32,281 nt of DNA from an uncultured delta proteobacterium (GTDB taxonomy: Bacteria; Desulfobacterota; Desulfomonilia; UBA1062), in NCBI GenBank assembly GCA_963798485.1, contig CAWCTR010000003.1:1-32281 (forward strand). Direction: 5' to 3'. A program made the position numbers and the translations under genes. This document shows positions 1 to 15,724 of the stretch, one piece after another (within the stretch, counting starts at the first letter, position 1; each line of letters starts with the position of its first letter). The notes under the pieces were generated by a model. The model was not told the DNA's origin. It saw only the letters and a program-made list of their open reading frames with translations, and did no database searches.

Positions 1-222
1 ACCTGGCACATCATCTATGGTTTTAAATATTTTAGCAGCATATTGCCTTACAGTCAACGGTTGACGTTAAAGATTGAGATAGTCGAAAGCCTTTAGGCAG
101 CTTTCTCTTTGCAGATCCTTAAAGAATCATTTAATGTAAGATTGAAGGTGGATGCGAACCGTCACCACCCGATAAATGGAACTACCGAAGAATGTAATCC
201 ACTCTACACGCAGGAGGTATTC

Positions 223-741
223 ATGAAAAAAACAGTAGTATTTCTCATGGCAATGGTCTTTCTCCTCTGCATCGATGTACATGCTGAAGACCAATGGAAA
301 CTTGCTAAAGAGTCGGGTGGAATAAAGGTATACACAATGAAAGATCCTCAAGGTAAAGATTTTGCTATCTTTAAAGGAGTCTGCGATGTTGATGCTCCCT
401 GGGAGGTCGTTCTTGAGGTCCTTAAAGACCTCCCATCATACACCAAGTGGTTTCCAAACTGCAAGGAAAGCCGGTTGATCAAAAGGGATGAAAAAAATAA
501 TTCAGTCGTCTATTTGGTCATCAGCCCCGGCTGGCCTGTGGCGGACAGGGATGTGGTATTTTATACCTTAAATTATGATTCCCCGGAAAAAGTTGAACAT
601 ACCATCTCGCTCAACTACATCAAGGACTCTGACGGTATAGTGCCGCGGAATAAAGATTATGTCCGTATGTTGGATATCGGTGGGGGTTATGTTCTTACAA
701 GGATTAAAAAAAATGAAACAACCATGGCCTTAGATAGATAG
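223..741 (+). CDS. Secreted START/SRPBCC lipid-binding domain protein; C-terminus appears frameshifted (coding-like sequence continues to ~879)
   Basis: AGGAGG at 212-217 before ATG 223; signal-peptide-like N-terminus MKKTVVFLMAMVFLLC; START motifs WKL..ESGGIKVY, KWFPNCKE, PGWPVADRD. Out-of-frame downstream sequence reads like NFMAVDIPF..KDEYYKKAGVQK*. Confidence 0.75.
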   Translation: MKKTVVFLMAMVFLLCIDVHAEDQWKLAKESGGIKVYTMKDPQGKDFAIFKGVCDVDAPWEVVLEVLKDLPSYTKWFPNCKESRLIKRDEKNNSVVYLVISPGWPVADRDVVFYTLNYDSPEKVEHTISLNYIKDSDGIVPRNKDYVRMLDIGGGYVLTRIKKNETTMALDR

Positions 742-1934
742 AATCTGGAGGGAATATACATGTGTTTCGCTTGTAAATTTCATGGCTGTGGATATACCTT
801 TTTCAAATCACTGAAGGAATAGAGAGAGATGAGTGAGAAAAAGGATGAGTATTACAAAAAGGCTGGTGTTCAGAAATAAAACAAGATACTTGTTGTTCAC
901 TGAGAATTGTGAGGGAGACATGGTAGGTGTATTCGAGCCTGGCGGCAGTAGAGATTAGCCACGCGATCCGTGGTGTGAAAGAGTCGAACCTGAAAGGAGC
1001 ACACTGCATATTTGATCGTATCGTCGCAGCGGTTAGCTACTGAATTGATTGCAGAGTCTTCGCCACGATGCTGGCCGAGGAAAAGATTTGCACACCTGCA
1101 GATGTCGAATTGCTCCGGCGAAAGTGGGGAAAAATGTGATAAAGGAATTGTTTATGGGCTACAAAGATCACCGATAAGGACGGTTTAGCATCTCGGAGAT
1201 CCTTCGAGGAAAAATTGGAAAGCGAAGGAAAGATTTATCCATCTACCTTGATGACTCTGCAATAGAAGATCACGCCGCGAAAGCGCGGCAAGAGGTCATC
1301 TGGGGAGAGCTCGATTAGTGAACCGGTGTCAGTGGCTAATGGCAGTGGGGAAGCCCCTTGGGACTAGGTCTCAGGATCAGGTGCCAACCGCTTTGCAGCA
1401 CTTGATGGAGATAGCAGCGCGGGTGGTGGGCGTCGCAGGAAAAGTGGAGGAGCAAGGCCTAGGGCCGGTGGAGAGCCAGGAAGGCGAAGCAGAGTGAACC
1501 ACTGATGAGCTGTCGAAAAGTTAGAGAGCGTCATGGGAACGGGGCTACTTTATGGGTCCGGGACGAGTCTGGGGGAACCTGTTTACTGCCCAGATGGTGG
1601 CCGGCAGAAAGGTGGCGCGAGCCTTGGTAGGGGCTTTCATGCGGAACGTGGGAACCTGGCGCTCTGATGCTAAGGGACAAGTTGGAAATTGGGAGGAGCC
1701 CAGTGAAGACGAAAATTTTTCCGATGCAGAGCGCAGGGGCGGTTGCGTCCGTAGTAGTGGTGGATTTCCGGTAACCGGGATGGAGCGAAGGGGCTGAGCT
1801 GTCCGACCTTGTGCATTGTGAGTCAACCAGCAATGGGAGGAGCTTATGGATAAGGTAAAGTCGTCATGTTCTTTATTGATGACTGGACGGCAGGAGCCGG
1901 ATCGGTGAGAGTCTCACGTCCGGTTCTGTGAGGG

Positions 1935-3908
1935 TTGCGCCTTGAAGCGTGGAATACAGTGGTCTGAAATGACCACCTTGGTAAAGCCTAGCCAGCAGCA
2001 GGAGTACCAGTCTTGCGTGGTGAGCGGTAACAATCACTGCGGAAGACGTAGACAGGAAGGTGCGATGGCCGGAATCGAAAGATGAAGAGGATAATTAGCC
2101 CCGAAATCGAACGTGTTTGAAGCAGTCGACCTTATCTCTCTATGGGGAAAACAACAATCTAGTCAGTAGCTGATGGCCAAGACGTCGATTGCTTCCGGGG
2201 GTCTCGACACCCTCCCCGGCGTGCTCCAAAGGATTCCAAGTGAACAAGGGAGATCCGGCAAACTCCGGCGGAGCCTGTAGGAACAAACAAGCCTACAGAG
2301 ACGGAGATCTGCGAGACGGTTTGTCGGAAGTCGGACTGGCTCATAAGTATACGAGACGGGAGAGCCTGTTACAAGGGGAAGCGGCAAGCGGGATTCGAGT
2401 ACTTCTAAGGAAACATGAGCTCCATACAAAGGGAGGATACGAGCCTAATGCAAAGTGGTAGACTCAGTCATGGGAACGGGATTAGAAGGGATAGCAGCAA
2501 AAGACTTAGAAGGAACGAACTTCAAGTTCACGACGCTCTGCCATCATGTCACCCGAGGAGAGTTTGATCTGGAAGAGTCTGAATAGCATTCCTAAACAAT
2601 CGGCACGGGAGTGGATGGTATGAGCGTGGAGACGAAGAAGACATTCGATGCATGGATGACAATGCTGCATAGTCAGTACACCGAAAAGCCTCCATCCACC
2701 ACCGGTAAGGCGGGGTTTGGATACCCAAGCCTTTCGGGAAGACCTGCAAGAGGCCTATAGGCGTACCTTGTATGGCGGACCGAGCACTGCAAAGAAGTGT
2801 TTCGGTGGTTCTGTCAAGTATTTATGAACAGGACTTTCTGCCGTGCTCATTTGAAGGTCCGAGGACCGGAACTTCGATGCCCGTAGCCATTTGCCTATCC
2901 ACACTCAATGAAATCATAGCGGGCAAGAAGGTGGTTCGGGTACTAGAAACAAGTGTAGAAGAACTTCTTCGGTAGTTTGAACCATGGATGGATAAGAACG
3001 GTTTGTTGAACATAGGAGTCGGAGACCCGAGGTTTATAAGCTTGATAAGGCGATGGTTAAAGGCTGGCGTTCCTGGAAGAGGGCGAGGTGAAACCGGTTG
3101 AAGAGGAGACTGCCAAGAAGGGGGGTGCCATCAGTGTACTGCTGAGCAATATATGTACTCCATACGTTTGGATCTTTGGTTGAAAGGGTGATCGAACCAA
3201 TGAAGAAGGGAGAAGCCTATCTGGTAAGGTATATAGATGATTTGTCGTATGCTTTCAGCTGCAGGTCGGATGCGATCTACTTTCCAAAAGGTACTGGTAG
3301 AAAGACTTGAGAAGTTTAGCTTGGAATTGAGACCTTGAGAAGACCCGGTTAGTGAAGTCCGGGCGCTTTGCCAACGCAAGACAAGGAAAAGGGTAAGAGC
3401 CTGGAGTTATATACTTTCTGGGGACTTACCCATTACTGTACCCGCAACCGCAGAGGGCAACTTTATGGTGGGTCGCAAGATAGGAAAAAGTCTCGATTCC
3501 GGCGGAGTGTTCAAAATTTGCCAGGCACTGATGCGGGAAATCAGGCACTATTCCTTGGGAGAACAACTGAGAAAATCAACCAAGTGCTGGAGGAGCCACT
3601 ATGCTCTATGGGTGTGCAGGTGGGAACGTTAAATCATTGTTCAAGATTTACCGTATTGCCGAAAAGTGTCTGGCGTAAGATGCCAGTAGCCGGAGCCAGG
3701 AGAAGAGCTGCATGACCTGGGATAGGGTGTTGCTACTTGCTGAGCCAGGTCTTCCGTTACAGCAGCCCAAGCTTTCTGTACCCTTCGGGAGGATGAAAGC
3801 ACTCGCTGTGCTGTGAAACAAATTTGTGGAGCCGCGTAGTGCGGGAAATGCAGACACTACGTTCTGTGGGGGTTGGGGCTGCCAATTTGCAGCCCCTTTC
3901 TACCCGGC
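1935..3908 (+). mobile_element. Inner group II intron (IIB, class E-like), RT-encoding
   Basis: Begins TTGCG at 1935; DI motifs (cttgcgtggtgagcggtaacaatcactgc..cgtagacagg, ccccgaaa, gtcgac..gaaaacaac, gaacaagggagatcc); degenerate DV at ~3829-3864; DVI hairpin ggggctgc..gcagcccc; 3' end ctacccggc. Confidence 0.8.
2470..3816 (+). pseudogene. Group II intron reverse transcriptase/maturase, multiply frameshifted; no endonuclease domain evident
   Basis: Fragments in different frames: MGTGLEGIAAK, FTTLCHHV, PPPVRRVWIPKP, RPIGVPCMADRALQRSV..LSSIYEQDFLPCSF, LIRRWLKAGV, RYIDD (3227-3241), GLTHYCTRNR, PLQQPKLSVPFGRMKALAVL*. Confidence 0.85.
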
Positions 3909-4134
3909 CCTGGGGGTGAGATTCCCCGGGCTACTCGACTCTCATTAAGCTCCATTTCCATTGTGACCCTGTTTTATATTTTACCAAACCCCGTTTGACC
4001 ATATTCAATGACTTAGAAATGACACTCCCTTAGATTGAACGGAATCATGGTGAAAGATGATGCATAAGGATTATGGGGAGTAGGGGTATCCATGATAAGG
4101 AAAGTCACGGAGAAAACAGAGATTTACCTTTCAT

Positions 4135-4169
4135 CTGGATTCCGGCCCCTGGATTCTGTATTCTGTCGC
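4135..4169. repeat. Degenerate 7-nt tandem repeat (ctggatt-like)
   Basis: ctggatt ccggccc ctggatt ctgtatt ctgtcgc. Confidence 0.45.
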
Positions 4170-4170
4170 T

Positions 4171-4842
4171 ATGAACCACTTTGAGAATAAGTATCAGGCC
4201 GTGATCTTCGACATGGACGGCACCTTGCTCGACACCATTGAGGACATTGCCGACTCCATGAACGCGGTATTAAATAGTCTCGGATTTCCTGTACATCCGG
4301 TAAGCAGTTATCGGGCGTTCGTGGGGGACGGGATAGAGGTCCTGGCCGAGAGGTCGCTGCCTGAGGGGCAACGCACCGCCCATACCATTGCCCGGAGTGT
4401 GGATCTCATGAAGGAGGAATACAACGTTCGGTGGTCTGTCAAATCAAGGCCTTTTCCCGGTATCCCCGAATTGCTCGATGGCCTGACGGAAAGGGGCATG
4501 GCGCTCTCCATCCTTTCCAACAAGCTCGATTCATTTACCAAGGCTATGGCCGCCTCATTGCTGCCCTACTGGAAATTTGCCGAAGTAAGGGGTCTTTCCC
4601 CGGATATCCCTAGAAAGCCCGATCCGACCGGTGCCCGTATTTGTGCGGACCGTATGGGAGCAGACCCGCGGCACTGCATCTTTGTAGGCGACAGCGATAT
4701 CGACATGGAGACTGCCGGCAGGGCCGGTATGGCAGCGTTCGGCGCCTTATGGGGTTACCAGGATAAGCAACAGTTGATAAATAACGGTGCAAGGATTCTC
4801 CTGGATGATCCAAGGGACCTGCTCGGGTATCTCTGCAAATAA
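4171..4842 (+). CDS. HAD-family hydrolase (phosphoglycolate phosphatase-like)
   Basis: Motif I FDMDGTLLDT, motif II LSNK, KPDP, motif IV VGDSDIDM. Confidence 0.9.
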   Translation: MNHFENKYQAVIFDMDGTLLDTIEDIADSMNAVLNSLGFPVHPVSSYRAFVGDGIEVLAERSLPEGQRTAHTIARSVDLMKEEYNVRWSVKSRPFPGIPELLDGLTERGMALSILSNKLDSFTKAMAASLLPYWKFAEVRGLSPDIPRKPDPTGARICADRMGADPRHCIFVGDSDIDMETAGRAGMAAFGALWGYQDKQQLINNGARILLDDPRDLLGYLCK

Positions 4843-4940
4843 TTCCTATCTCTTATGAATAATTTGCCATTGACCGGCAACTTCCCCATCCGGTAGAGAA
4901 GTCCATTGACAGGGCCGGTAGGGCTTAACATAAAAAGGTC

Positions 4941-5519
4941 ATGATGGAGGTATTCTTGAGTGCATTTCTTAAAAAAGATGAATGTTTTCTCATTGTAGTA
5001 GACATCCAGGAGAGGCTCCATGCCGCCATGGAAGACCAACTCAAGGAAACCTATGTTAAGAATAGTGTGATCCTCATAGAGACGGCCAAGTCATGTCAGA
5101 TCCCGATTATTGTGTCCGAGCAATACCCCAAGGGGCTGGGACCGACCATAGCTGATGCGGCAGGACACCTTGAGGGCATACGCAGGCATGAGAAGCTCTT
5201 CTTCAGCTGCTATAGGGATGAGGGGATAAAGAAGGCCATTAAATCAACAGGCAGGAAGACGGCTGTCATTATCGGCATTGAGACGCATGTGTGTGTCATG
5301 CAGACCGCGATTGACCTTTTTAATGACGGCTATTGCGTTGTTATTGCCGGTGATGCTGTCTGCTCCAGAAGGGCGCATGACAGGGGGACCTCGCTCGATG
5401 CCATGGTGCGTCTCGGGGTGCTCGTATATCCCACCGAGACAATCGCCTTCATGTTTATGGAAAAGGCCGGAACGGATTTATTCAAAAAATTGTCAGTTCT
5501 TTTCAAGTTACAGCATTAA
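4941..5519 (+). CDS. Isochorismatase-family cysteine hydrolase
   Basis: VVDIQERL, SEQYPKGLGPT, EKLFFSC, GIETHVCVMQTA, DAVCSR. Confidence 0.88.
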   Translation: MMEVFLSAFLKKDECFLIVVDIQERLHAAMEDQLKETYVKNSVILIETAKSCQIPIIVSEQYPKGLGPTIADAAGHLEGIRRHEKLFFSCYRDEGIKKAIKSTGRKTAVIIGIETHVCVMQTAIDLFNDGYCVVIAGDAVCSRRAHDRGTSLDAMVRLGVLVYPTETIAFMFMEKAGTDLFKKLSVLFKLQH

Positions 5520-5562
5520 GCCCTTGAAACCATGATTCTTGTATGGTAAATGGCTCAACCAG

Positions 5563-5648
5563 CACACACGCCCCGTAGTATAACAAGGTCTGAGGTGTCC
5601 TTGCAAACCAAGGATCAGCCTTGTAGGGCGGAGGAAAAACCAAGGAGG
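5563..5648 (+). promoter_or_regulatory. Putative rpsB 5' leader (structured autoregulatory RNA) and RBS
   Basis: cacacacg start, nested stems acaaggtctga/tcagccttgt and ccttg/caagg, then gcggagg and AGGAGG before rpsB; resembles known rpsB leaders. Confidence 0.5.
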
Positions 5649-5654
5649 TAGTAC

Positions 5655-6545
5655 ATGTCAGTCGTCACCATGAAACAGCTGCTCGAGGCTGGTGTTCATT
5701 TCGGTCATCAGACACCGAGGTGGAATCCAAAGATGAAACCCTACATTTTCGGTTCACGTAACGGCATCCATATCATCGATCTCCAGAAGACCGAAAAGCT
5801 CTTCGAAAAGGCATGCGATGTTATCCGTGAAACAGCTGCCAACGGCGGCAAGGTCTTGTTCGTAGGCACCAAGAAACAGGCACAGGACGCCATCGAGGAA
5901 GAATCCCAGAGGGTAGGGGCCTTTTACGTGAATTACCGCTGGCTCGGCGGCACACTCACAAATTTCACCACCATCCGCAAGAGCGTGGACAAGCTCAAGT
6001 GGCTTGAATCAATCATCGATAACAGCAATATCGAGAACTATCCCAAGAAGGAACAGATCATGATGAAGCGCCACAAGATGAAGCTGGAGCGCTCGCTCCA
6101 TGGGATAAAGGATTTGGGCGGTCTTCCTGATGTCCTTTTCATTGTTGACCCCTCTCGTGAGTATATAGCGGTCCGGGAGGCCAAGAAGCTGAAGATACCC
6201 ATAGTCGCCATTGTAGATACCAACTGCGATCCCACGCTCATCGACTATGTCATTCCCGGTAATGACGATGCCATAAGGGCTATCAGGCTGTTTACCTCCA
6301 AGATAGCGGATGCAGTGGATCAGGGCGGCCAGCTCTGGCAGGAAAAGCTGGCCACCGAGGTAAAAGAGGCCACGGCCGATGAGAAGGTCCAGACCAAGCA
6401 GAAGGCTGCTTCCACCGAGGTTATGGGCAAGGGGCTTGAGCATGAGATCGAGATCATCGTTAAAGACAGCAAGCCGGCGAAGGTAAAAGATGCTGAGATA
6501 ACGGCAGAGTCCGTGAACCCCACCGGCGAGGAAGAATCAGCATAG
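5655..6545 (+). CDS. rpsB: 30S ribosomal protein S2
   Basis: [53 protein letters not shown]. Confidence 0.99.
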
Positions 6546-6566
6546 AAACGTTGTTGGAGGTAGAGA

Positions 6567-7166
6567 GTGCAGATAACATCGGATGTGGTAAAAAAACTCA
6601 GAGATAAGACCGGCGTCGGCATGATGGACTGTAAGAAGGCCCTTGAAGAGACGAATGGGGATTTTGAAAAGGCAGTGGAGGCCCTCAGGAAGAAAGGCAT
6701 TGATGTTGCCAACAAACGCTCCGGCAGGCAAGCCGGCCAGGGTACGGTGGCTGCATACATCCATATGGGCGGGAAGATCGGCGTGCTTGTAGAGGTGAAC
6801 TGCGAGAGTGATTTTGTTGCAAAGTCGGATGACTTCAACAACTTCGTCAAAGACGTTTCCATGCAGATCGCTGCTGCAAACCCCGAGTGGGTTACCAGGG
6901 ATGAAGTGCCGCAACAGGTCCTTGATAAAGAAAAAGAAATCCTCAAAGATCAGGCGCTCAAGACAGGCAAGCCCGAGAAGGTGATAGAGAAGATCGTAGA
7001 AGGCAAGCTCACCAAATTCTACTCCGAGCGTTGTCTTATAGACCAGCCTTTTGTGAAGGATCAGGACAGGACCATAAAGCAACTCTTGGATGAATTAATG
7101 GCAAAAACCGGAGAAAAGTGCCTGGTAAGACGATTCGTTCGGTATCAGGTGGGTGAAGATATCTGA
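6567..7166 (+). CDS. tsf: Translation elongation factor Ts (short form)
   Basis: VKKLRDKTGVGMMDCKKAL, VEVNCESDFVAK; GTG start with GGAGG; follows rpsB. Confidence 0.98.
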   Translation: MQITSDVVKKLRDKTGVGMMDCKKALEETNGDFEKAVEALRKKGIDVANKRSGRQAGQGTVAAYIHMGGKIGVLVEVNCESDFVAKSDDFNNFVKDVSMQIAAANPEWVTRDEVPQQVLDKEKEILKDQALKTGKPEKVIEKIVEGKLTKFYSERCLIDQPFVKDQDRTIKQLLDELMAKTGEKCLVRRFVRYQVGEDI

Positions 7167-7896
7167 CGAGAGGGTCCCCTTGCATTATAAACGAATACTG
7201 CTCAAGGTTAGCGGAGAGGCCCTCGCCGGAGGCAAGGGTTTCGGCATTGATGATGCGACATTAAAAGGCTTTGTTGCATTGGTGAACGCAGCTATTGATG
7301 CCGGGGCACAAGTCGGCCTTGTTATCGGCGGGGGAAACATGTTCAGGGGGATAAGCGCCACATCCGTGATCGACCGGGTCAGCGCCGATCACATGGGCAT
7401 GCTTGCTACCGTGATCAACGCCCTGGCCTTAAAGAGCGCACTTATTGCCCAGGGTTGCCAGTGCAGGATCATGAGCGCTATCCACATACCCTCCATGGCT
7501 GAACCCGTTGTAAGCGAGAGGGCGATCCGTCATCTTGAGAAGGGAAGGGTTGTAATCTTTGCAGGTGGAACCGGCAGTCCATTTTTCACTACCGATACCA
7601 CGGCGGCATTGAGGGCACTTGAGATCAGGGCTGATGTACTCATAAAGGCCACGAAGGTAAACGGCATTTATGATAAAGACCCCATGAAACATAAAGATGC
7701 CCGGTTTTTCAAAGAGCTGGACTTTGATATGGTCCTTAAGATGAACCTTGGCGTCATGGATGCATCTGCGATTTCCCTGTGCCGTGAAAACGGGCTTGAA
7801 GTGAGGGTAATCAATATTTTTGAGCATGAAAGCTTGTCAAGACTCCTGAAAGGAGAGGAGATCGGATCAGTCGTCAGAGCGAGGAGGGATAATTAA
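7153..7896 (+). CDS. pyrH: UMP kinase
   Basis: YKRILLKVSGEAL, GGGNMFRG, DHMGMLATVIN, GTGSPFFTTDT. Confidence 0.98.
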   Translation: MKISDERVPLHYKRILLKVSGEALAGGKGFGIDDATLKGFVALVNAAIDAGAQVGLVIGGGNMFRGISATSVIDRVSADHMGMLATVINALALKSALIAQGCQCRIMSAIHIPSMAEPVVSERAIRHLEKGRVVIFAGGTGSPFFTTDTTAALRALEIRADVLIKATKVNGIYDKDPMKHKDARFFKELDFDMVLKMNLGVMDASAISLCRENGLEVRVINIFEHESLSRLLKGEEIGSVVRARRDN

Positions 7897-8453
7897 TGGT
7901 TGATGAGATCCTCAATGACATGAAGCACGGCATGAACAAGACCGTGGATTCCATGAAGGGTTCACTTCAAAAGGTTCGCACAGGCCGGGCATCCATCGGC
8001 ATCTTAGACGGCATTATGGTGGATTACTACGGCACACCCACCCCCATGAGTCAACTCGCAACCATGGCTGTACCGGAGGCGCGTCTCATCACCATACAGC
8101 CCTGGGACAAAGGCGCCTTGGCACCTATCGAGAAGGCAATAATGAAATCCGAACTTGGTCTTACCCCTAACAACGACGGGAGAATCATCCGTGTCCCCAT
8201 CCCCCCTCTGAACGAAGAGAGGCGAAGGGATCTTGTAAAAATGATAAAGAAAACAGCCGAAGAATTTCGTGTAGAGGCCCGCAACCATCGTCGTGATGCC
8301 AATACCCTTTTAAAAGACCTTGAGAAGGAAAAAGAGATCAACAAAGACGAGCTCAAGGTTGCCCAGGACAAGGTGCAGGACCTCACCGACAACTGCATCA
8401 AACTCATTGATGAACAGCTTGCAATAAAAGAAAAAGAGATTATGGAAGTATGA
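7896..8453 (+). CDS. frr: Ribosome recycling factor
   Basis: RTGRAS, VDYYGTPTP, PPLNEERR, RNHRRDAN; rpsB-tsf-pyrH-frr synteny. Confidence 0.98.
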   Translation: MVDEILNDMKHGMNKTVDSMKGSLQKVRTGRASIGILDGIMVDYYGTPTPMSQLATMAVPEARLITIQPWDKGALAPIEKAIMKSELGLTPNNDGRIIRVPIPPLNEERRRDLVKMIKKTAEEFRVEARNHRRDANTLLKDLEKEKEINKDELKVAQDKVQDLTDNCIKLIDEQLAIKEKEIMEV

Positions 8454-8559
8454 TGGTTATACGTAAAGGCATATTATTTTATAGGTATAAGACAGGCGTT
8501 GAGCCTGGTAATGATTTATACGAAGATATCTTGATTGGAAAGAACGAGGAGGTGCATCT

Positions 8560-9057
8560 ATGATGCGCGCAAAAGAGGAAAAGGTTTCTTCACGGTTTAT
8601 GATGTACTTTAAGCCAAACAACTTGAGTGAGCTCAGGGTCATCTCCCGGATGCTGAACATCGCTATGGTCGATTTTGTAGGCGCTGCCCTTGATGCTTAT
8701 ATCTTCAAAAAAGAAAGTGAGTTGGATGGGAAAGTACCTTTGCGTCAAAAGAGAAGATATGTAGGCCCAAGGAACGATACATCCGAGAAGCGGATACGCT
8801 ATGTCATGCGTTTGGACAAGAACCTGGTGGAAAGGCTCAGAGACATCGCGTCTTTTGACAACCGCAGGTTCACCCATGTCTGCGATGATGCCGTTGCCAA
8901 CTTTATCCTGTTCACAAAGCAGGCAAAGAGTTTTAAGAATATCTGGACGGCAAGGTCAGATGTTGAGGCGGTGAGAGGAAGGAAGAGCGTCAAGTCCAAT
9001 GAGGAGATAGCAGGCCTCTTGAATGCGTATAAGAATAAGGTCCCGTCAATAGGCTGA
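8560..9057 (+). CDS. Hypothetical protein with two tandem ribbon-helix-helix-like repeats
   Basis: GGAGG RBS; repeats RFMMYFKPNNLSELRVISRMLNIAMVDFVGAALDAYI and RYVMRLDKNLVERLRDIASFDNRRFTHVCDDAVANFI. Confidence 0.6.
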   Translation: MMRAKEEKVSSRFMMYFKPNNLSELRVISRMLNIAMVDFVGAALDAYIFKKESELDGKVPLRQKRRYVGPRNDTSEKRIRYVMRLDKNLVERLRDIASFDNRRFTHVCDDAVANFILFTKQAKSFKNIWTARSDVEAVRGRKSVKSNEEIAGLLNAYKNKVPSIG

Positions 9058-9077
9058 TCATACAGTGGACTTCGGCG

Positions 9078-10643
9078 ATGGAGGATCTCTTGGAAAGTCC
9101 TGAGCCCTCTATCCGTCGGAAAACGGGTATATTCCCCAATCTGTCAGTGTGGTTACGTCCTGCCGGGGCGCATAGAGATATTAACGGATGGTACAGGGCA
9201 TCTTTCTGGGGAAGTGTTGCCTGTATTGTGCTGTATACCGCTTTCGGATATGTCTTTGTTAGGGAGCATGCCCTTCGGATAACAGCCGAGACGGCCCTCT
9301 TGGCCCGTTTCGGTATGACGGTTCTCATCAATCCGGATGATGTCCATCTGATAGCGCCGGGCCATCAGCTTGCCAGTGCCCTTTTTTTCGGAATGACCCT
9401 CGGTGTCCTGAATGCCCTTGTGTGCATGGCTCTCACCTTACCGGCATGGGTTTCAGGCCGTTTTGTACGCCGGGACCTCTTTGCCTTTGCCGGGGCAGTC
9501 CTTGTATGCACATTTTTCACCTTCAGCAAAGACATGCCCTGGGTATCCGTCTGTTTCGGGCTCCTGAGCCCCTTAGTCTTCACTCTTGTATGGCTGTTTA
9601 TGGTTAGGAAAGCAGGACACAAAAGCATCAATATAAATATAAAAAGATGGGCTATCTTCTGTGGTATCATCATTGCCCCCCTGGCGATCATTATCGGAAC
9701 CGGCTCATCATTCATGTCGATACGTGATTCCATGCTCTCCATGAGGGTTACCGAGGCCTTGAGTGACGTCTATTATGATCATACCCTCTTGTCTGCTGAT
9801 GTGATCAAACCCATTTCCGCCAGGTCCCAGAACGTGATTGCGTTTTCTGATGATATAAAATCTCTGGGTTACACACCCCACGGGACCCTCTGGATTCGAT
9901 CAAAAAGTCCTTGCTCGGTTGAAGGTGCAACCTTTGCGGTGAGCAGGCAGCCTTTGAACTGCAGGTCTGTAAGGCTCCCGGATGACAGCTTGAGTGCGAA
10001 TGATAATAACAGGATCATCGACGAGCTGAGCAAGGGCATAGATCCCAATAAACAGATGCGCGGTGGTATTGGCTTCTTCTTTTTTTCCGGACCGTTGATC
10101 GTCATTACTGCCCTCATCTTGTCATGGTTTGCCCTTGCACTGGAGATGATTTTTACCCGGAGCAGGTTAATTGTGTTCATAATTGTTATTGCCTATCTGT
10201 CGGTCTTTATGCCCCTGTTCCACGGGGCATATCTCCTGGCCCGGCTCAAGTCTCATCCGGAAAAGATATCAGACTATGCCGCCTCACCTGTGGAGAGGAT
10301 GCGCTATGCGGTTGTGGCCACTTATCCGGGGGCCTTGTCTAAGCAAGACCTTGTGAGGTTGATGCAGGACCCAAGCGCCCGTGTACGGGTAAATGCCGTG
10401 ATTGAGGCCGGGGATCGTATGGACATGGCCCTTCTGAGCGCCATTGAGGCTCGATTGAAAGATCCCAAAATGAATGTACGTACCAAGGCATGCCGGGCGC
10501 TTGGCAAGATACAGTCGGATAAGGCATTAAACCTCCTGGACAAGGCTGTAAGCGAAGATCCCTCATGGTATGTACGGGACTATGCCTATGCCTCTATGGG
10601 CAGGATCAGGCCCGAGACCAAGGTGATATCGCTTATCAAATAG
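9078..10643 (+). CDS. Multi-pass membrane protein with C-terminal HEAT/PBS-lyase repeats
   Basis: Several hydrophobic segments; repeats QDPSARVRVNA, KDPKMNVRTKACRALG, EDPSWYVRDYA. Confidence 0.75.
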   Translation: MEDLLESPEPSIRRKTGIFPNLSVWLRPAGAHRDINGWYRASFWGSVACIVLYTAFGYVFVREHALRITAETALLARFGMTVLINPDDVHLIAPGHQLASALFFGMTLGVLNALVCMALTLPAWVSGRFVRRDLFAFAGAVLVCTFFTFSKDMPWVSVCFGLLSPLVFTLVWLFMVRKAGHKSININIKRWAIFCGIIIAPLAIIIGTGSSFMSIRDSMLSMRVTEALSDVYYDHTLLSADVIKPISARSQNVIAFSDDIKSLGYTPHGTLWIRSKSPCSVEGATFAVSRQPLNCRSVRLPDDSLSANDNNRIIDELSKGIDPNKQMRGGIGFFFFSGPLIVITALILSWFALALEMIFTRSRLIVFIIVIAYLSVFMPLFHGAYLLARLKSHPEKISDYAASPVERMRYAVVATYPGALSKQDLVRLMQDPSARVRVNAVIEAGDRMDMALLSAIEARLKDPKMNVRTKACRALGKIQSDKALNLLDKAVSEDPSWYVRDYAYASMGRIRPETKVISLIK

Positions 10644-10734
10644 TAAATATGCCTGACGTCCTTGAGGTAACATCGAATCTGTGTTAGGCAGCATAGTGTT
10701 ACAATCATACTATCTTAGGCAATCGGGGCAGCAT

Positions 10735-11586
10735 ATGATTCAGATAAAAGACAAACCGTGGGCCAAGAAAAAAGATGAAGGAAAAGAGAAGGTCAAAGAG
10801 AGGCTAGGGCTCATCAGACACACCATTATGGTCATGAGCGGCAAGGGCGGTGTGGGCAAATCCACTGTGGCTGCAAACCTGGCGGCAGGCCTGGTGCAAC
10901 AGGGATATGCCGTAGGCGTCCTTGACGGCGACATCCATGGCCCCAATATCCCGAAGATCCTTGGTATTGAGGACTGCTCCATAAAGGGGGATGAAGAAGG
11001 GAATATGATCCCTGTGGATGTTTATAAAAACCTTAAGGTAGTCTCCGTAGGGAACCTTCTGGAAAATAAGGACCAGCCCATTATATGGCGCGGCCCCATG
11101 AAACATTCGGTGATGAGGCATTTTATCAATGATGTAAAATGGGGTGAGCTCGATTTCCTCATCGTCGACCTCCCTCCCGGCACAGGGGACGAGCCGCTTT
11201 CTATTGCGCAGATCATAAGGCAGGCACAGACCGATCGCTCACCCCATGCCGTCATCGTCACGACACCCCAGGATGTCGCCCTGCTGGACTCACGAAAGAG
11301 CGTTGAGTTCGCAAAGGCATTAAACCTGAGCATGCTTGGGATTATCGAGAATATGAGCACCTTTTCCTGCCCCCACTGCGGGCATGCCATCGATCTGTTC
11401 AAGGCAGGAGGTGGTGAACGTGCCGCCCACGAGCTTAATGTGCCTTTCCTCGGTGCCATACCCATTGACCCTGCTGTTGTGCGGGACACCGACAACGGCA
11501 GACCATTCATGCTCTATAACATGAGCTGTGTTGCAGGCATGGCTTTCCAGCGGGTCATAGAAAAGATATTGAAGTCTTTCGGATAA
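10735..11586 (+). CDS. apbC: Mrp/NBP35 (ApbC) Fe-S cluster carrier ATPase
   Basis: SGKGGVGKST, DGDIHGP, IWRGP, DLPPGTGDE, VTTPQ, ENMSTFSCPHC; ATG 10735 preferred over GTG 10681. Confidence 0.92.
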   Translation: MIQIKDKPWAKKKDEGKEKVKERLGLIRHTIMVMSGKGGVGKSTVAANLAAGLVQQGYAVGVLDGDIHGPNIPKILGIEDCSIKGDEEGNMIPVDVYKNLKVVSVGNLLENKDQPIIWRGPMKHSVMRHFINDVKWGELDFLIVDLPPGTGDEPLSIAQIIRQAQTDRSPHAVIVTTPQDVALLDSRKSVEFAKALNLSMLGIIENMSTFSCPHCGHAIDLFKAGGGERAAHELNVPFLGAIPIDPAVVRDTDNGRPFMLYNMSCVAGMAFQRVIEKILKSFG

Positions 11587-11616
11587 TTGATTCATTCATT
11601 ATAATGAAGCAGTCTT

Positions 11617-12120
11617 ATGCCGACATATAGTACAATGATAAAGCCAATCACAAACGAATATTGTCTTAGTACTTTTCCTCATAAACAGCTCGTAGCCCTT
11701 TATACTGTTTTCCTGCTGGCCTTAGGATTCGGCTGTCAAGTACATTCCTCTGACATAAATATCCAAAAGGACTCATCTGCAAAGGTTGGCGGCCCTTGTG
11801 AGTACAAAGACTACAAAGGCAAGGCCGAGGTAATATCTGTTCAGAAGATAGAGTTTGGCAGTGCTTCAACAAGCATAAAGAAGCCTGATGGGTCATATGA
11901 AGTAAAATATTCATTTTATCCGGAGAATAAGATTCAAGAGACCTTTGTTCACGTGGAGTCTCGATATTTTGTTCTCCTTCTTCCCGATTCGTCTTATCCT
12001 GACCCCGAGTTCATTCGAAAGAATGACATTACACCGGGTAAGAAACTTGATTGTGTCCTAAAGGTTATCACGAAAGGTGCATGCACCCCCATGATCTTCA
12101 AGTTTCCGGCATTGAAGTGA
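11617..12120 (+). CDS. Hypothetical exported or lipoprotein-like protein
   Basis: Hydrophobic stretch ending LGFGC; Cys motifs GGPCEY and GACTP; start uncertain. Confidence 0.55.
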   Translation: MPTYSTMIKPITNEYCLSTFPHKQLVALYTVFLLALGFGCQVHSSDINIQKDSSAKVGGPCEYKDYKGKAEVISVQKIEFGSASTSIKKPDGSYEVKYSFYPENKIQETFVHVESRYFVLLLPDSSYPDPEFIRKNDITPGKKLDCVLKVITKGACTPMIFKFPALK

Positions 12121-12149
12121 AAATCAGGAAACAGTATAGGTACAACAAC

Positions 12150-15100
12150 ATGATTACTTATAAGAAATCATTTGCCAATATTACGATACTGTTCCTTATA
12201 TTCTTGGCAGGTATTTTTCAAGCTGCTCAAGCAGATGATCTCAGAAGGCCGCATGGTGTTATGCGGCCTGACAGTGAAACCCTGATCAATTGGCAACAGA
12301 GATATAAAGACGCCCCACAAGCACAGATAAAAAAGAATGTGCTGTATAACGCAGGATCTACGGGATCATTGAGTTTATTGAACCATCTTGATTATATCCC
12401 TTCCGAATATGACCAGGGTTCGTGCGGAGACTGCTGGATGTGGGCGGGGACTGGGGTAATGGCCATTGCCCTCGATGTAAATAATAATACATACGACAGC
12501 CTCTCTGTCCAATATTTTAATTCAAATGCAACGGTGGTACCCGGGTTAACATGTTGCGCAGGCGGCGACCTTTCCTATCTGGTCGATTTCTATTCTACTT
12601 CGGGATACCAGCAGGCCATACCCTGGTCTAATACAAATGCAAACTGGCAGTCTGGAAATGACACATGTGGTCCTCTAGGCGCATCTATCAGTACCAATCC
12701 TGATTATCCCATTTCATCGATAACAGCTGTAACAATACCGACCCAAACAGTCTCTCAGGCTACGGCCATTGCAAATATTAAGAGCATACTCAATCAGAAT
12801 CAGGCTGTTTATTTTGGTTTTATCATGCCTACAGCGGCAGATGGAACTAACTTTGATACCTTCTGGGAAAACCAAACAGAAGACATAATTTGGAATCCCG
12901 ATTTCTCCTGTGGTCACAGATATACCACTGGCTGGGGCCATGCGGTGCTCTGTGTCGGTTACAATGATGAAGATCCCAACAACTCCTATTGGATCATAGT
13001 GAACAGCTGGGGTGTAACCTCAGGAAGACCGAACGGGATATTCCACCTTGATATGAACATGAGTTATAATTGTCAGTATAGCATAGGCAGGCAAACGGGA
13101 TATTATAGCTTCGAATTTTGGACACTGAATATTGCTTACGCGATCCCACAAATATTGTCTTCCTCTCCAACCTCTCTTGCTGATTCATGCGTAACAGGGA
13201 ATATCGTCCCATCCCAAACGTTCCAAGTCTCAAACTCAGGCACGGGGACCCTCAATTACACAATTACAACAGATCAGGCGTGGTTAACCTGCAACACAAC
13301 AAGCGGCACATTATCAGGTGCATCAAGTACGAATACTATCACAGTAAATTATGCAACCTCCAGCTTAGCCCCAGGGAACTACTCGGCCAATATCACGATA
13401 ACCGCACAAGGCTCACAGAATAGCCCTCAGACTATCCCGGTGAGTCTCACGGTGCTTTCACCTACGCCTACAATTGCGATCTCTCCAACCTCTCTTACTA
13501 ATTCATGCCCGGCAGGGACTAATGCCTCAGCCCAATCGTTCCAAGTCTGGAACTCAGGTGCAGGGACTCTGAATTACACGATTTCAACCACCATAACAAC
13601 AGGTCAGGATTGGGTATCCTGCTACACTACAAGCGGAATTTCATCAGGTGCATCAGATAGGAAAGCTATTGCAGTAAATTATTCAACCTCCAGCTTACCT
13701 CCAGGGAGCTACTCGGCGACTATCACGATAAACGCTCCAGGTTCATCGAACAGCCCTCAGACTATCCCGGTGAGTCTTACGGTCCTTCCACCTACGATTG
13801 CAGTTTCTCCAACCTCTCTTACTAATTCATGCGTAGTGGGAAATAATGCCCCTGCCCAAACGTTCCAAGTCTGGAACTCAGGGGCGGGAACCCTCAATTA
13901 TACAATTACAACCACCATAACAACAGGTCAGGCTTGGGTATCCTGCGACACGGCAAGCGGCACTTCATCAGGCCCATTAAATCAGCAGACTATTACCGTA
14001 AATTATATAACCTCCGGCTTACCTCCTGGGAACTATTCGGCGACTATCACGATAACCGCAGCAGGATCATCGAACAGCCCTCAGACTATCCCGGTGAATC
14101 TTACGGTCCTCACTCCCACCATATCATTTTCTCCTTTATCTCTAACCAACTCATGTTCCCAGGGGTGTAACGCAGCCGGCCAAACATTCAATGTCTGGAA
14201 CTCAGGTGCCGGTACACTGAATTACACGATATCTTCAGATCAATCATGGGTTTCCTGTGCAACATCGGGGACTTCAAGTGGCGTAAATGACAAAAAGAGT
14301 ATCTCAGTATTCTACTCTGCTTCAGGCCTTACCGCTGGGGACTATTCAGCTACTATTACCATAACCGATCCCATGGCATCCAATAACCCACAGACTCTCC
14401 CTGTGACCTTAAATATAACTCCCCCTCCCAGTCCTGTGATTGCTCATAATGCCCCTGCAACAATTTCCGCTTCGTGCATTCAAGGCAGCAACCCGTCAAG
14501 CACATCTTTCAATATATGGAACTCCGGGGGCGGGACCTTGGGTTATACGATCGCATCCAGTCAATCCTGGCTCTCTTGCATCCCCTCAAGCGGAACATCC
14601 GTTACCACGTGCAGTGGCAGCGGGCATAACACCATCACGATCAGTTATTCAACAACCGGGCTAACAGCAGGGAGTTACCCGGCAAGCATTACCATTAATG
14701 CCTCAGGGGCATCAAATAACCCACAAACTATACCGGTAAGCTTGACAGTGAACGCCCCCGCACCGGTCCCAACCATTTCAGACACCCCTGCATCCATCAC
14801 AGTCACGTGCGTGAAAGGATCCAATGCATCGAGTCAGTCTTTTGATGTGTGGAACTCAGGAACTGGGACGCTTAATTATACGATTTATGATGACGCTTCG
14901 TGGCTGTCATGTACACCATCAAGCGGAACATCCATTGGCGGGCATAGCGTTATAACTGTCACTTTTGCAAACTCCGACCTTGTTTCAGGGACATATCCGG
15001 CAACTATAACCATCAGCGCACCAGGGGCGTCAAACAGCCCCCAGACTATCCCCGTGAGCCTGATTGTGAGTGAACCGGTCGTCGTCAGCACGGTAAAATC

Positions 15101-15572
15101 AACCTTCTCGATTGATCCTGCATCTCTCACGGTGACATGTACACAAGGATCTGATGCAGCAGACCAAAGTTTTGATATATGGAATTCGGGGAGCGGAACG
15201 CTCAATTATTCCATTTCCGCCGATGCAAATTGGATCACCGTTTCACCTGCAAACGGGGCTTTGACTAGTGATCATACCATGATCACTGTTCATTTAAATA
15301 CCGCCGGCCTGGCTGCAGGGGAGTATGACCAGAACATTACCATCGCCTCTGTAGATGCAGATGTTACCAACAGCCCTCAAACAATACCTGTGCATGTGTC
15401 GGTGAAAGCTGCCGCTGCACTGAGCACAGGAGGCAGTGGAGGAGGCGGGGGCTGTTTTATATCCTGTTCCGTATCAAAGGGGCATGTTTCACAAGTGATG
15501 TATTTCTTTGTGGTCGTAGGGATAATGTTCGTAGGTATAGCACGTTTCATCATACAATTCGTGGCACCATAA
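12150..15572 (+). CDS. Papain-like (C1) cysteine protease with 7 Ig/BACON-like repeats and a C-terminal GGGGGCFI plus TM anchor
   Basis: Signal peptide; DQGSCGDCW (Gln/Cys), GHAVLCVGY (His), NSWG (Asn); repeats with (W)NSGxGTLxY..W..PQT(I/L)PV; tail GGSGGGGGCFI followed by a hydrophobic helix. Confidence 0.88.
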   Translation: MITYKKSFANITILFLIFLAGIFQAAQADDLRRPHGVMRPDSETLINWQQRYKDAPQAQIKKNVLYNAGSTGSLSLLNHLDYIPSEYDQGSCGDCWMWAGTGVMAIALDVNNNTYDSLSVQYFNSNATVVPGLTCCAGGDLSYLVDFYSTSGYQQAIPWSNTNANWQSGNDTCGPLGASISTNPDYPISSITAVTIPTQTVSQATAIANIKSILNQNQAVYFGFIMPTAADGTNFDTFWENQTEDIIWNPDFSCGHRYTTGWGHAVLCVGYNDEDPNNSYWIIVNSWGVTSGRPNGIFHLDMNMSYNCQYSIGRQTGYYSFEFWTLNIAYAIPQILSSSPTSLADSCVTGNIVPSQTFQVSNSGTGTLNYTITTDQAWLTCNTTSGTLSGASSTNTITVNYATSSLAPGNYSANITITAQGSQNSPQTIPVSLTVLSPTPTIAISPTSLTNSCPAGTNASAQSFQVWNSGAGTLNYTISTTITTGQDWVSCYTTSGISSGASDRKAIAVNYSTSSLPPGSYSATITINAPGSSNSPQTIPVSLTVLPPTIAVSPTSLTNSCVVGNNAPAQTFQVWNSGAGTLNYTITTTITTGQAWVSCDTASGTSSGPLNQQTITVNYITSGLPPGNYSATITITAAGSSNSPQTIPVNLTVLTPTISFSPLSLTNSCSQGCNAAGQTFNVWNSGAGTLNYTISSDQSWVSCATSGTSSGVNDKKSISVFYSASGLTAGDYSATITITDPMASNNPQTLPVTLNITPPPSPVIAHNAPATISASCIQGSNPSSTSFNIWNSGGGTLGYTIASSQSWLSCIPSSGTSVTTCSGSGHNTITISYSTTGLTAGSYPASITINASGASNNPQTIPVSLTVNAPAPVPTISDTPASITVTCVKGSNASSQSFDVWNSGTGTLNYTIYDDASWLSCTPSSGTSIGGHSVITVTFANSDLVSGTYPATITISAPGASNSPQTIPVSLIVSEPVVVSTVKSTFSIDPASLTVTCTQGSDAADQSFDIWNSGSGTLNYSISADANWITVSPANGALTSDHTMITVHLNTAGLAAGEYDQNITIASVDADVTNSPQTIPVHVSVKAAAALSTGGSGGGGGCFISCSVSKGHVSQVMYFFVVVGIMFVGIARFIIQFVAP
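13146..15405 (+). repeat. Seven ~105-aa intragenic tandem domain repeats
   Basis: Seven units visible in translation; units 1-3 share long identical DNA stretches (tctccaacctctctt, agccctcagactatcccggtga); bounds approximate. Confidence 0.85.
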
Positions 15573-15724
15573 TCTTTACCCACACCGCGCTTTTATCTTG
15601 ACTGGTGAGCAGCCTTACCATAAATTCTGCTGCAACCCGTTGGTAAGGGCATTTGGAATGGCATTGGGGATGAAACCTTTTACCAGCCTCTTTTGAGATG
15701 GACGTAAGGTGAGAAACCGGATCT

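Follow-up and report, generated by a model that had tools for sequence, protein, structure and literature searches.

A probable fossil group II twintron and its guest, an intron from a widespread lineage predicted to home into the domain V-linker-domain VI region of other group II introns

The DNA analysed here, called the window, is a stretch of 32,281 nt from an uncultured delta proteobacterium and corresponds to contig C3 (CAWCTR010000003.1) of assembly GCA_963798485.1, a bin of 32 contigs with 6.96% contamination; other C numbers denote contigs of the same genome. Between approximately position 1270 and position 3939 it contains one group II intron inside another. The best explanation, which we hold to be very probable, is that this is a fossil twintron whose inner intron (the guest) comes from a widespread lineage that homes, guided by its RNA, into the DNA for domain V (DV), the linker and domain VI (DVI) of other group II introns (the hosts). 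The exact nesting, the recurrent site, the diversity of hosts, the covariation between the exon-binding sites (EBS) of the guest and the intron-binding sites (IBS) in its targets, and the presence of intact copies in the genome were all observed directly. The parts of the twintron are the following.

1270-1934, + strand: 5' segment of the outer (host) intron, from domain I (DI) to DV plus the first 5 nt of DVI; placed by alignment with four copies lacking an open reading frame (ORF), at 85-88% identity, 5' end approximate.
1894-1926, + strand: DV of the outer intron, from the alignment and the fold; Intron_gpII match of 28.3 bits, below 40.
1923-1926, + strand: IBS2 of the inner intron, GTTC, the final 4 nt of the host DV; pairs with EBS2 at 2109-2112.
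1929-1934, + strand: IBS1 of the inner intron, TGAGGG, the last linker base and first 5 nt of the host DVI; pairs with EBS1 at 2136-2141.
1935-3908, + strand: inner intron, decayed copy of 1974 nt, starting with TTGCG and ending with CTACCCGGC; boundaries exact from the uninterrupted hosts.
1966-2210, + strand: core of the inner intron, DI to domain IV (DIV); RF02005 group-II-D1D4-6, 80.2 bits (144.3 bits in intact copies).
2109-2112, + strand: EBS2 core of the inner intron, GAAC; alignment columns 269-272.
2136-2141, + strand: EBS1 of the inner intron, CTCTCT; alignment columns 297-302, a hairpin loop in the Rfam D1D4-6 consensus structure.
2449-3816, + strand: remnant (pseudogene) of the inner reverse transcriptase (RT)/maturase gene, recognised from RT pieces in the three-frame translation and from indels.
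3829-3864, + strand: damaged DV of the inner intron, from alignment with the C18 and C7 copies and the fold.
3865-3908, + strand: linker and DVI of the inner intron, with predicted branch A 3902; alignment, and a bulged A in the fold of the intact copy.
3909-3939, + strand: remainder of DVI and 3' end (CTACTCGAC) of the outer intron, with predicted branch A 3933; alignment to the uninterrupted copies and fold of the joined form.

The nesting was established by comparison with hosts that lack the guest. Deletion of 1935-3908 restores the DV-DVI pair of the outer intron, and in the joined form DVI folds with a bulged A. A search of the genome with positions 1283-3939 as query gave 17 matches, and four uninterrupted copies of the outer intron, which a preliminary description of this DNA had proposed to look for, were found (C2:14161-14764, C14:505640-506243, C7:625457-626060 and C17:79233-79836). 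In all four, the equivalent of position 1934 directly abuts the equivalent of 3909 in the alignment. They are about 600 nt long and without an ORF, start with GTGCGCC after a common exon motif, end with CTACTCGAC, and each score 64 bits with Intron_gpII (cut-off 40) and about 104 bits with D1D4-2 (cut-off 36), intact relatives of the outer intron lying at 104-106 bits. The same proof was available for a second host: the one that carries the guest at C7:265227-267167 has an uninterrupted twin at C7:635746-635822, whose DV-DVI equals the joined form of the guest-bearing host across the 75 nt folded. The nesting and the boundaries 1935 and 3908, as first proposed, were thereby borne out, and the uninterrupted copies together with the folds of the joined forms reveal what defines a twintron, a whole intron within another that its removal restores. 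Because the same junction occurs at other loci and in other genomes, the nesting is not due to chance.

The details of the architecture required some revision. The insertion had been described as lying exactly at the DV/DVI junction, while the alignment shows that DV ends 8 nt before it and that 5 nt of the DVI 5' strand precede it; the bulged branch A lies two base pairs below it. The 5' end of the outer intron had been put at 1283; it aligns to about 1270, and the GTGCG start has been lost. Removal of the inner piece does rebuild a DV-DVI pair, as had been claimed; the DV reaches just 28.3 bits, and its upper helix is one base shorter than in the intact copies. The 3' remainder at 3909-3939 is the same as in the uninterrupted copies except for one missing C. 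The outer intron of the window has no ORF and is degenerate, its EBS1-like motif also carrying a deletion. At the Rfam gathering thresholds, the window gave a single match, the group-II-D1D4-6 core (cut-off 49 bits), and a permissive scan added two weak matches below their cut-offs, Intron_gpII at 1892-1982 and D1D4-2 at 1345-1457 (25.8 bits). The Rfam comparison proposed earlier supported the inner intron, while Intron_gpII stayed below its cut-off in the window.

The four ORF-less introns (C2, C14, C7 and C17; D1D4-2 type) are near-identical, and each stands after the exon motif ATAACTKCGATAAA, to which a TTTATC in DI is complementary. Their mobility is presumably provided in trans by the RT of the full-length relatives that lie on C18 and C10. 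A lone 317-nt piece of the outer intron's DI, 84% identical, is found at C14:382112-382428.

The position of the guest recurs. In this genome, three of three full inner copies follow ..GGTTCTG plus 6 nt, in three different hosts. Contig C18 carries an intact twintron in which the outer and the inner RT gene are both open, and its inner RT, P0001, was used to scan contigs of one genome per species. This yielded 563 relatives, the best 80 of which were studied (loci with L numbers). These 80 are 63-87% identical and come from Desulfobacteria-like bins, Bacillus, Terriglobia, Vicinamibacterales, Mesorhizobium, Bradyrhizobium, Mycoavidus, Methylobacter and others. Their 5' ends were placed by a profile of the first 300 nt, and 64 junctions with at least 60 nt of upstream sequence were readable. 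To count as a DV, a hairpin had to contain a catalytic-triad motif, form no fewer than 11 of 13 helix pairs and end 3-14 nt upstream of the junction; an earlier descriptor, satisfied in 31 of 64, was too strict because it disallowed a G-A mismatch at the triad, and was replaced by this looser version with a random control. When the flanks of homologues were tabulated in this way, as the preliminary description had recommended, a DV lay upstream at 47 of the 64 junctions, compared with 25 of 2000 positions drawn at random from these loci. The finished plasmids of cultured Sinorhizobium meliloti and S. medicae show an annotated ltrA/maturase ORF and a DV directly upstream of a relative that is 66% identical, 1940 nt long and present in 26 plasmid records at 80% cover or more.

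It might be argued that the junctions 1934/1935 and 3908/3909 are artefacts of collapsed repeats in a metagenome bin. The bin is indeed fragmented and partly contaminated, contigs break at inner-intron copies (the end of C10 and the start of C21), C3 and C2 overlap over about 16 kb, and the window junctions are without read cover. Nevertheless, both junction types are present at two other loci of the genome and in dozens of other assemblies, and their occurrence in the finished plasmids from cultured rhizobia excludes an artefact of metagenome assembly, so that we regard a chimera as scarcely conceivable. At C10:125330-125410 the contig ends 6 nt short of the expected guest junction in a full-length outer intron, and at the start of C21 (C21:1-33) a single base precedes the DVI 3' strand of a host. 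In both places the assembly probably broke at an additional twintron copy.

The recognition of the target could be followed in the intron itself. EBS1 pairs with exon positions -1 to -6 and the EBS2 core with positions -9 to -12, and the inner intron thus has in its DI the two sequences complementary to the 5' exon. For the covariation analysis, 59 non-redundant junctions were aligned and each exon position was compared with each intron column; the shuffle controls used 58 of them (L053 was left out because its DI was misaligned) and 2000 sets of shuffled exons. Between EBS1 and IBS1, 310 of 348 cells were paired (shuffle mean 266, maximum 285), and between EBS2 and IBS2, 193 of 232 (mean 171, maximum 184); in neither case was a value as high reached in any of the 2000 shuffles. 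EBS1 and IBS1 covary at positions -1, -2, -4 and -5. Four pair types occur at position -2, with 97% pairing, and four at position -4, with 88%, while position -1 is G-C in 54 junctions and A-U in L029; the pairing at this position fixes the 5' splice site before the U. For EBS2, compensatory changes were found in L030 and L073.

These data also bear on the possibility that there is no targeting and that the intron lands at random and survives preferentially inside other introns since it is harmless there. Bacterial group II introns in general insert into other mobile elements (PMC2882425, PMC5894124). However, the position is the same to the nucleotide across host classes, EBS1 and EBS2 covary with the flank, and sites that are not introns mimic the motif by eye. 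This possibility is already contradicted, and we consider it hardly tenable. The idea, put forward in the preliminary description, that the inner element is a member of a lineage living as a parasite in the most conserved part of other introns finds strong support in the sequence evidence: the copies of this genome, the enrichment of DVs at the junctions, the Sinorhizobium plasmids, the host families and the EBS/IBS covariation all point in the same direction.

In the fold, IBS2 forms part of the DV strand that pairs with the catalytic triad. The role of the DV catalytic triad is established, and therefore exon binding by the guest and folding of DV by the host compete in RNA. The EBS2-IBS2 interaction was reported to be dispensable for self-splicing in IIE and IIF introns (PMC3753933), and by analogy it may serve mainly for DNA targeting in the present lineage.

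The hosts are diverse. An RT ORF is located upstream at 25 of the 64 junctions, with 27-62% identity to P0002, the outer RT of C18, and 25-65% to P0001; many hosts of the lineage are without an ORF. When DI-DIV of the host was classified by Rfam at nine loci, D1D4-2 was found in one, D1D4-3 with D1D4-1 in one, D1D4-4 in three, D1D4-6 in one and none in three, so the hosts span at least four Rfam intron families. The hosts in L024, L031, L051, L054 and L081 have a DV of the CCGC..GGTGG type with a CGC triad, and in L024 the D1D4-3 and D1D4-1 matches lie upstream. In these five hosts IBS1 fits EBS1 and IBS2 does not fit EBS2; entry may require no more than EBS1.

The guest's own lineage is also represented among the hosts. 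In L091, L093 (Vicinamibacterales chromosome OZ250139.1) and L021, a DVI 3' tail of about 33 nt is repeated two or three times after one intron body, and in L093 there are two 5' ends 1905 nt apart. From their sequence, the repeated tails are best read as the lineage nested in itself, up to three deep. Recombination may leave orphan DVI tails as well.

Several observations weigh against the explanation given above. The DV descriptor fails at 17 of the 64 junctions. About ten of these (L018, L029, L060, L061, L062, L071, L073, L076, L092 and L096) are without any DV; the remaining failures look by eye like truncated or mis-registered DVs, and the flanks of the DV-less sites are, also by eye, still similar to the target motif. 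On the 3' side, a strict descriptor for the host DVI 3' strand, which is too rigid for the varied DVI geometries, was satisfied at 23 of 57 loci compared with 182 of 1140 (16%) with mismatched hosts, a weak signal; support on this side consists of five junctions read by eye and the repeated tails, and systematic proof is weak. All six IBS1 pairs are formed in just 26 of 58 junctions (five or more in 55 of 58), and the four ORF-less outer copies carry the target of the inner intron and yet are empty. The best-scoring 80 of 563 loci are not a random sample, and kinship among the sequences inflates the shuffle statistics, although the occurrence of several pair types at a position is independent of kinship. 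The window copy has a heavy indel load beside flanks of about 100% identity to C2. In addition, a search for sequencing runs listed no RNA run and one DNA run with 0.13 of sampled words, whose reads gave two 52-nt pieces on the window, at 1476-1527, and none at the junctions.

The window copy itself is in a poor state. The inner piece had been described as having its own TTGCG start, RT ORF, DV and CTACCCGGC end; the two ends were confirmed, while the RT ORF and an intact DV were not. No RT ORF was found in the inner piece, whose longest + strand ORFs are of 90 and 115 aa, and in the three-frame translation RT-like peptides are dispersed across all three frames. Compared with the intact C18 copy, it is 89.6% identical and differs by 46 indel events, including 35 within the ORF, 30 of which shift the frame; substitutions in the RT remnant are evenly spread across codon positions (42/39/42). 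The inner DV carries an insertion of 2 nt, is mutated in its upper helix and has lost the DV fold, and no DV match was listed for it even in the permissive Rfam scan of the window. On account of the frameshifting indels, the even distribution of substitutions and the broken DV, the window probably holds a fossil twintron in which both partners look dead and whose inner copy is inactive.

Alternatively, the twintron of the window could still work, the inner intron making its own RT and splicing first, thereby restoring the host DVI so that the host can splice in turn. The host DV-DVI does fold with a bulged A once the inner piece is removed, and the intact twintron on C18 could act in this way. 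For the window itself this is quite improbable, given the frameshifts and unbiased substitutions in the RT gene, the disrupted inner DV, the outer DV below its cut-off, and an outer intron that has lost its GTGCG and part of its EBS1-like motif.

Intact copies are nevertheless present in the genome. The inner copies on C18 and C7, each of 1941 nt, agree at 1940 positions; their ribozyme scores 144.3 bits with D1D4-6 and 45.9 bits with Intron_gpII (cut-off 40). P0001 comprises 449 residues, translated from just upstream of the first ATG, with RVT_1 at 108 bits and GIIM at 25.9 bits; P0002 has 417 aa with RVT_1 and GIIM. In neither protein did the domain scan report an endonuclease domain. The description of the inner intron as RT-bearing holds for these copies, the window copy having only a pseudogene. 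Judged by its sequences, the lineage is likely to be active elsewhere in this genome and in many others.

Part of the window is represented twice in the assembly. Positions 1-18100 overlap C2:1-16089 on the reverse strand, over about 16 kb, and the inner intron is present in C3 alone. C3:1-600 and C3:3909-9000 are about 100% identical to C2, while C3:600-1800 is only 59-92% identical. The divergence could be due to a strain variant, a duplicate or old allele, or a consensus problem in a repeat, and the indel load of the window copy could partly reflect a poor consensus rather than decay. Sequencing error at the contig end was considered as a simple cause of the decay and rejected, since C3:1-600 is about 100% identical to C2 and the divergence is limited to 600-1800 and the inner intron.

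A further possibility is that the composite moves and splices as one unit, either because the host tolerates the 1.9-kb guest as a giant bulge of DVI or because the inner intron never splices (a "zombie" twintron), so that there is no obligatory order. Folding brings the two ends of a group II intron near each other, and the host DVI could perhaps still pair. In lycophyte mitochondrial twintrons, the outer intron was reported to splice while the inner one was not seen to do so (PMC7049729). The pattern of occupancy would also fit, as the RT-bearing outer copies are occupied in one case (C18) and perhaps in both (the C10 contig ends just before the junction), whereas the four ORF-less copies are empty. 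In contrast, unrelated hosts on C18 and C7 contain inner copies of 99.9% identity, which independent recent homing would produce, and the C18 target is perfect for EBS1 while the empty sites have a wobble and a mismatch, which alone could explain the occupancy. We regard movement and splicing as one unit as rather unlikely.

Both termini of the inner intron are unusual. A G is near-invariant at position 1 of group II introns, and the inner intron, which starts with 5' UUGCG and ends with ..GGC at the 3' end, does not conform to the GUGYG...AY consensus. Among 69 5' ends of the family (L018-L099), 60 were TTGCG, five TTGTG, three GTGCG and one GTGCA, so that 65 of 69 start with U. The 3' ends are GC in this genome and UG elsewhere (Sinorhizobium copy, L098), instead of AY, and a change at one terminus may have gone along with the change at the other. 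Two more distant D1D4-6 relatives (RT identity 41-45%; 187-190 bits), as well as other D1D4-6 introns on C17, start with GTGCG and have no DV upstream, and therefore homing into DVI and U at position 1 mark a sub-clade; we expect homing into DVI to have arisen once within the D1D4-6 class. At C17:74190-76750, a GTGCG-type D1D4-6 intron (192 bits, with an open frame of 510 codons) is followed head-to-tail by a shorter ORF-less copy, in tandem and without nesting.

The placement of the two introns among known classes is as follows. By pairwise identity, P0002 is 61-64% identical to multi-copy ltrA genes of Bradyrhizobium and of S. meliloti plasmids, and we take these genes to be RmInt1. The class D type that the preliminary description assigned to the outer DV-DVI end is a tentative label. 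Class D RmInt1-like intron-encoded proteins lack an endonuclease domain and have about 419 aa. For the inner intron, the Rfam D1D4-6 assignment alone was obtained; in search of a class name, published descriptions offered no diagnostic feature, a cluster look-up gave generic names, and a plasmid search did not single out the class E intron of S. meliloti GR4.

In the explanation that we favour, homing of the guest into DV-linker-DVI, the host is a degenerate, ORF-less intron of the D1D4-2 type, with intact ORF-less and RT-bearing relatives elsewhere in the genome, and the guest a decayed copy of an endonuclease-less, RT-encoding D1D4-6 type intron with a UUGCG 5' end. The homing site would be that part of the DNA of other group II introns which encodes the 3' end of DV, the linker of 3 nt and 5 nt at the start of DVI. 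The target would be read by RNA, EBS2 pairing with the last 4 nt of DV and EBS1 with the final base of the linker and the initial 5 nt of DVI, and these pairings would direct reverse splicing to a point 5 nt into DVI. The 3' end of DV, the linker and the start of DVI form the most conserved primary sequence of group II introns, and a lineage with this target can be expected to colonise several classes of intron, its own kind included. Retrohoming would combine reverse splicing with priming at replication forks, in the manner of RmInt1 and other endonuclease-less introns; this kind of priming was described for RmInt1-type introns (PMC5894124, PMC4424553). Only after the exit of the inner intron would the host DVI become functional, and insertion into another selfish element would presumably carry no cost to the cell. 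In a broader reading, for and against which we see even chances, the cross-phylum clade would be a hyperparasite of group II introns as such, which enters any class, including its own, through DV-linker-DVI and rides between genomes on its hosts, the splicing and mobility of a host depending on the splicing of the guest; U at position 1 and the non-AY 3' end might then be adaptations to life inside a ribozyme.

To our knowledge, bacterial twintrons have been treated as rare curiosities, and the intron-hunting lineages that we know of aim at protein-coding parts, either the YADD motif or the start of the ORF in DIV. A target common to nearly all group II introns allows one lineage to be found in at least four Rfam intron families and in many phyla. 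Such twintrons provide a natural system in which to ask whether a group II ribozyme can work with a split branch helix, with cultured Sinorhizobium as a ready experimental model, and a case of parasite-on-parasite dynamics among retroelements. Automated intron finders were described as dropping loci with several introns (PMC4028801, PMC8919778), and would therefore under-count both partners. Our literature search, whose coverage did not extend to key older papers, returned homing into RT genes or DIV and no description of homing into DV/DVI. With moderate uncertainty, we consider the DV/DVI target to be new for a known kind of intron-homing lineage.

Several known systems share some of these properties. 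The twintrons of Thermosynechococcus elongatus consist of ORF-less F3 (TeI3) introns in F1 (TeI4) introns (Mohr et al. 2010, PMC2882425) and resemble the present case in having identical inner copies in diverged hosts, as in the nearly identical C18 and C7 copies; they differ in that the insertion lies in DIV between two start codons and that one genome and one intron family are involved, the hosts being close kin of the guests. The nested introns of Methanosarcina acetivorans (Dai and Zimmerly 2003, as summarised in PMC4424553) similarly arise by repeated cycles of homing, with nests several deep balanced by recombination, and the repeated tails of L091, L093 and L021 look similar, although the Methanosarcina case, as summarised there, concerns one archaeal genus. 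UHB.I2 has the boundaries 5'-UUGCG..GU-3' and, according to its authors, an RT in the CL1 class and a location after an attC site (PMC7923331). It has the same U at position 1 and a non-AY 3' end, and differs in its CL1 RT and post-attC site; the likeness of the two is one of description. PMC4424553 also cites the work of Copertino and Hallick (1991) on the psbF twintron of Euglena gracilis. In the Trichodesmium twintron, the insertion is in DI (PMC4649490).

The Methanosarcina study was reportedly about homing into related intron ORFs. In the psbF twintron of Euglena gracilis, the inner intron reportedly lies within a catalytic-core domain of the outer one, so that, as in the present case, sequential splicing would be needed. 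It differs in being a plastid twintron at a single locus, composed of ORF-less degenerate introns, with no mobile lineage that has a conserved target.

The closest analogue, by the type of target, is the lineage of YADD-homing introns, B.th.I3, M.a.I5, UA.I3 and P.l.I2, which target the YADD motif in the RT genes of other introns (Tourasse and Kolsto 2008, PMC2504315). These introns are also endonuclease-less, have their IBS1 and IBS2 in a conserved sequence of other group II introns, and form repeated twintrons across distant taxa. Their target is protein-coding, namely the RT active site in DIV, whereas the target in the present lineage would be the ribozyme core, which lies downstream of the host ORF and is struck at the 3' strand of DV, the linker and the 5' strand of DVI. 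The YADD guests thus split an ORF, while the present guest splits the branch-point helix, and the likeness between the two is one of target type.

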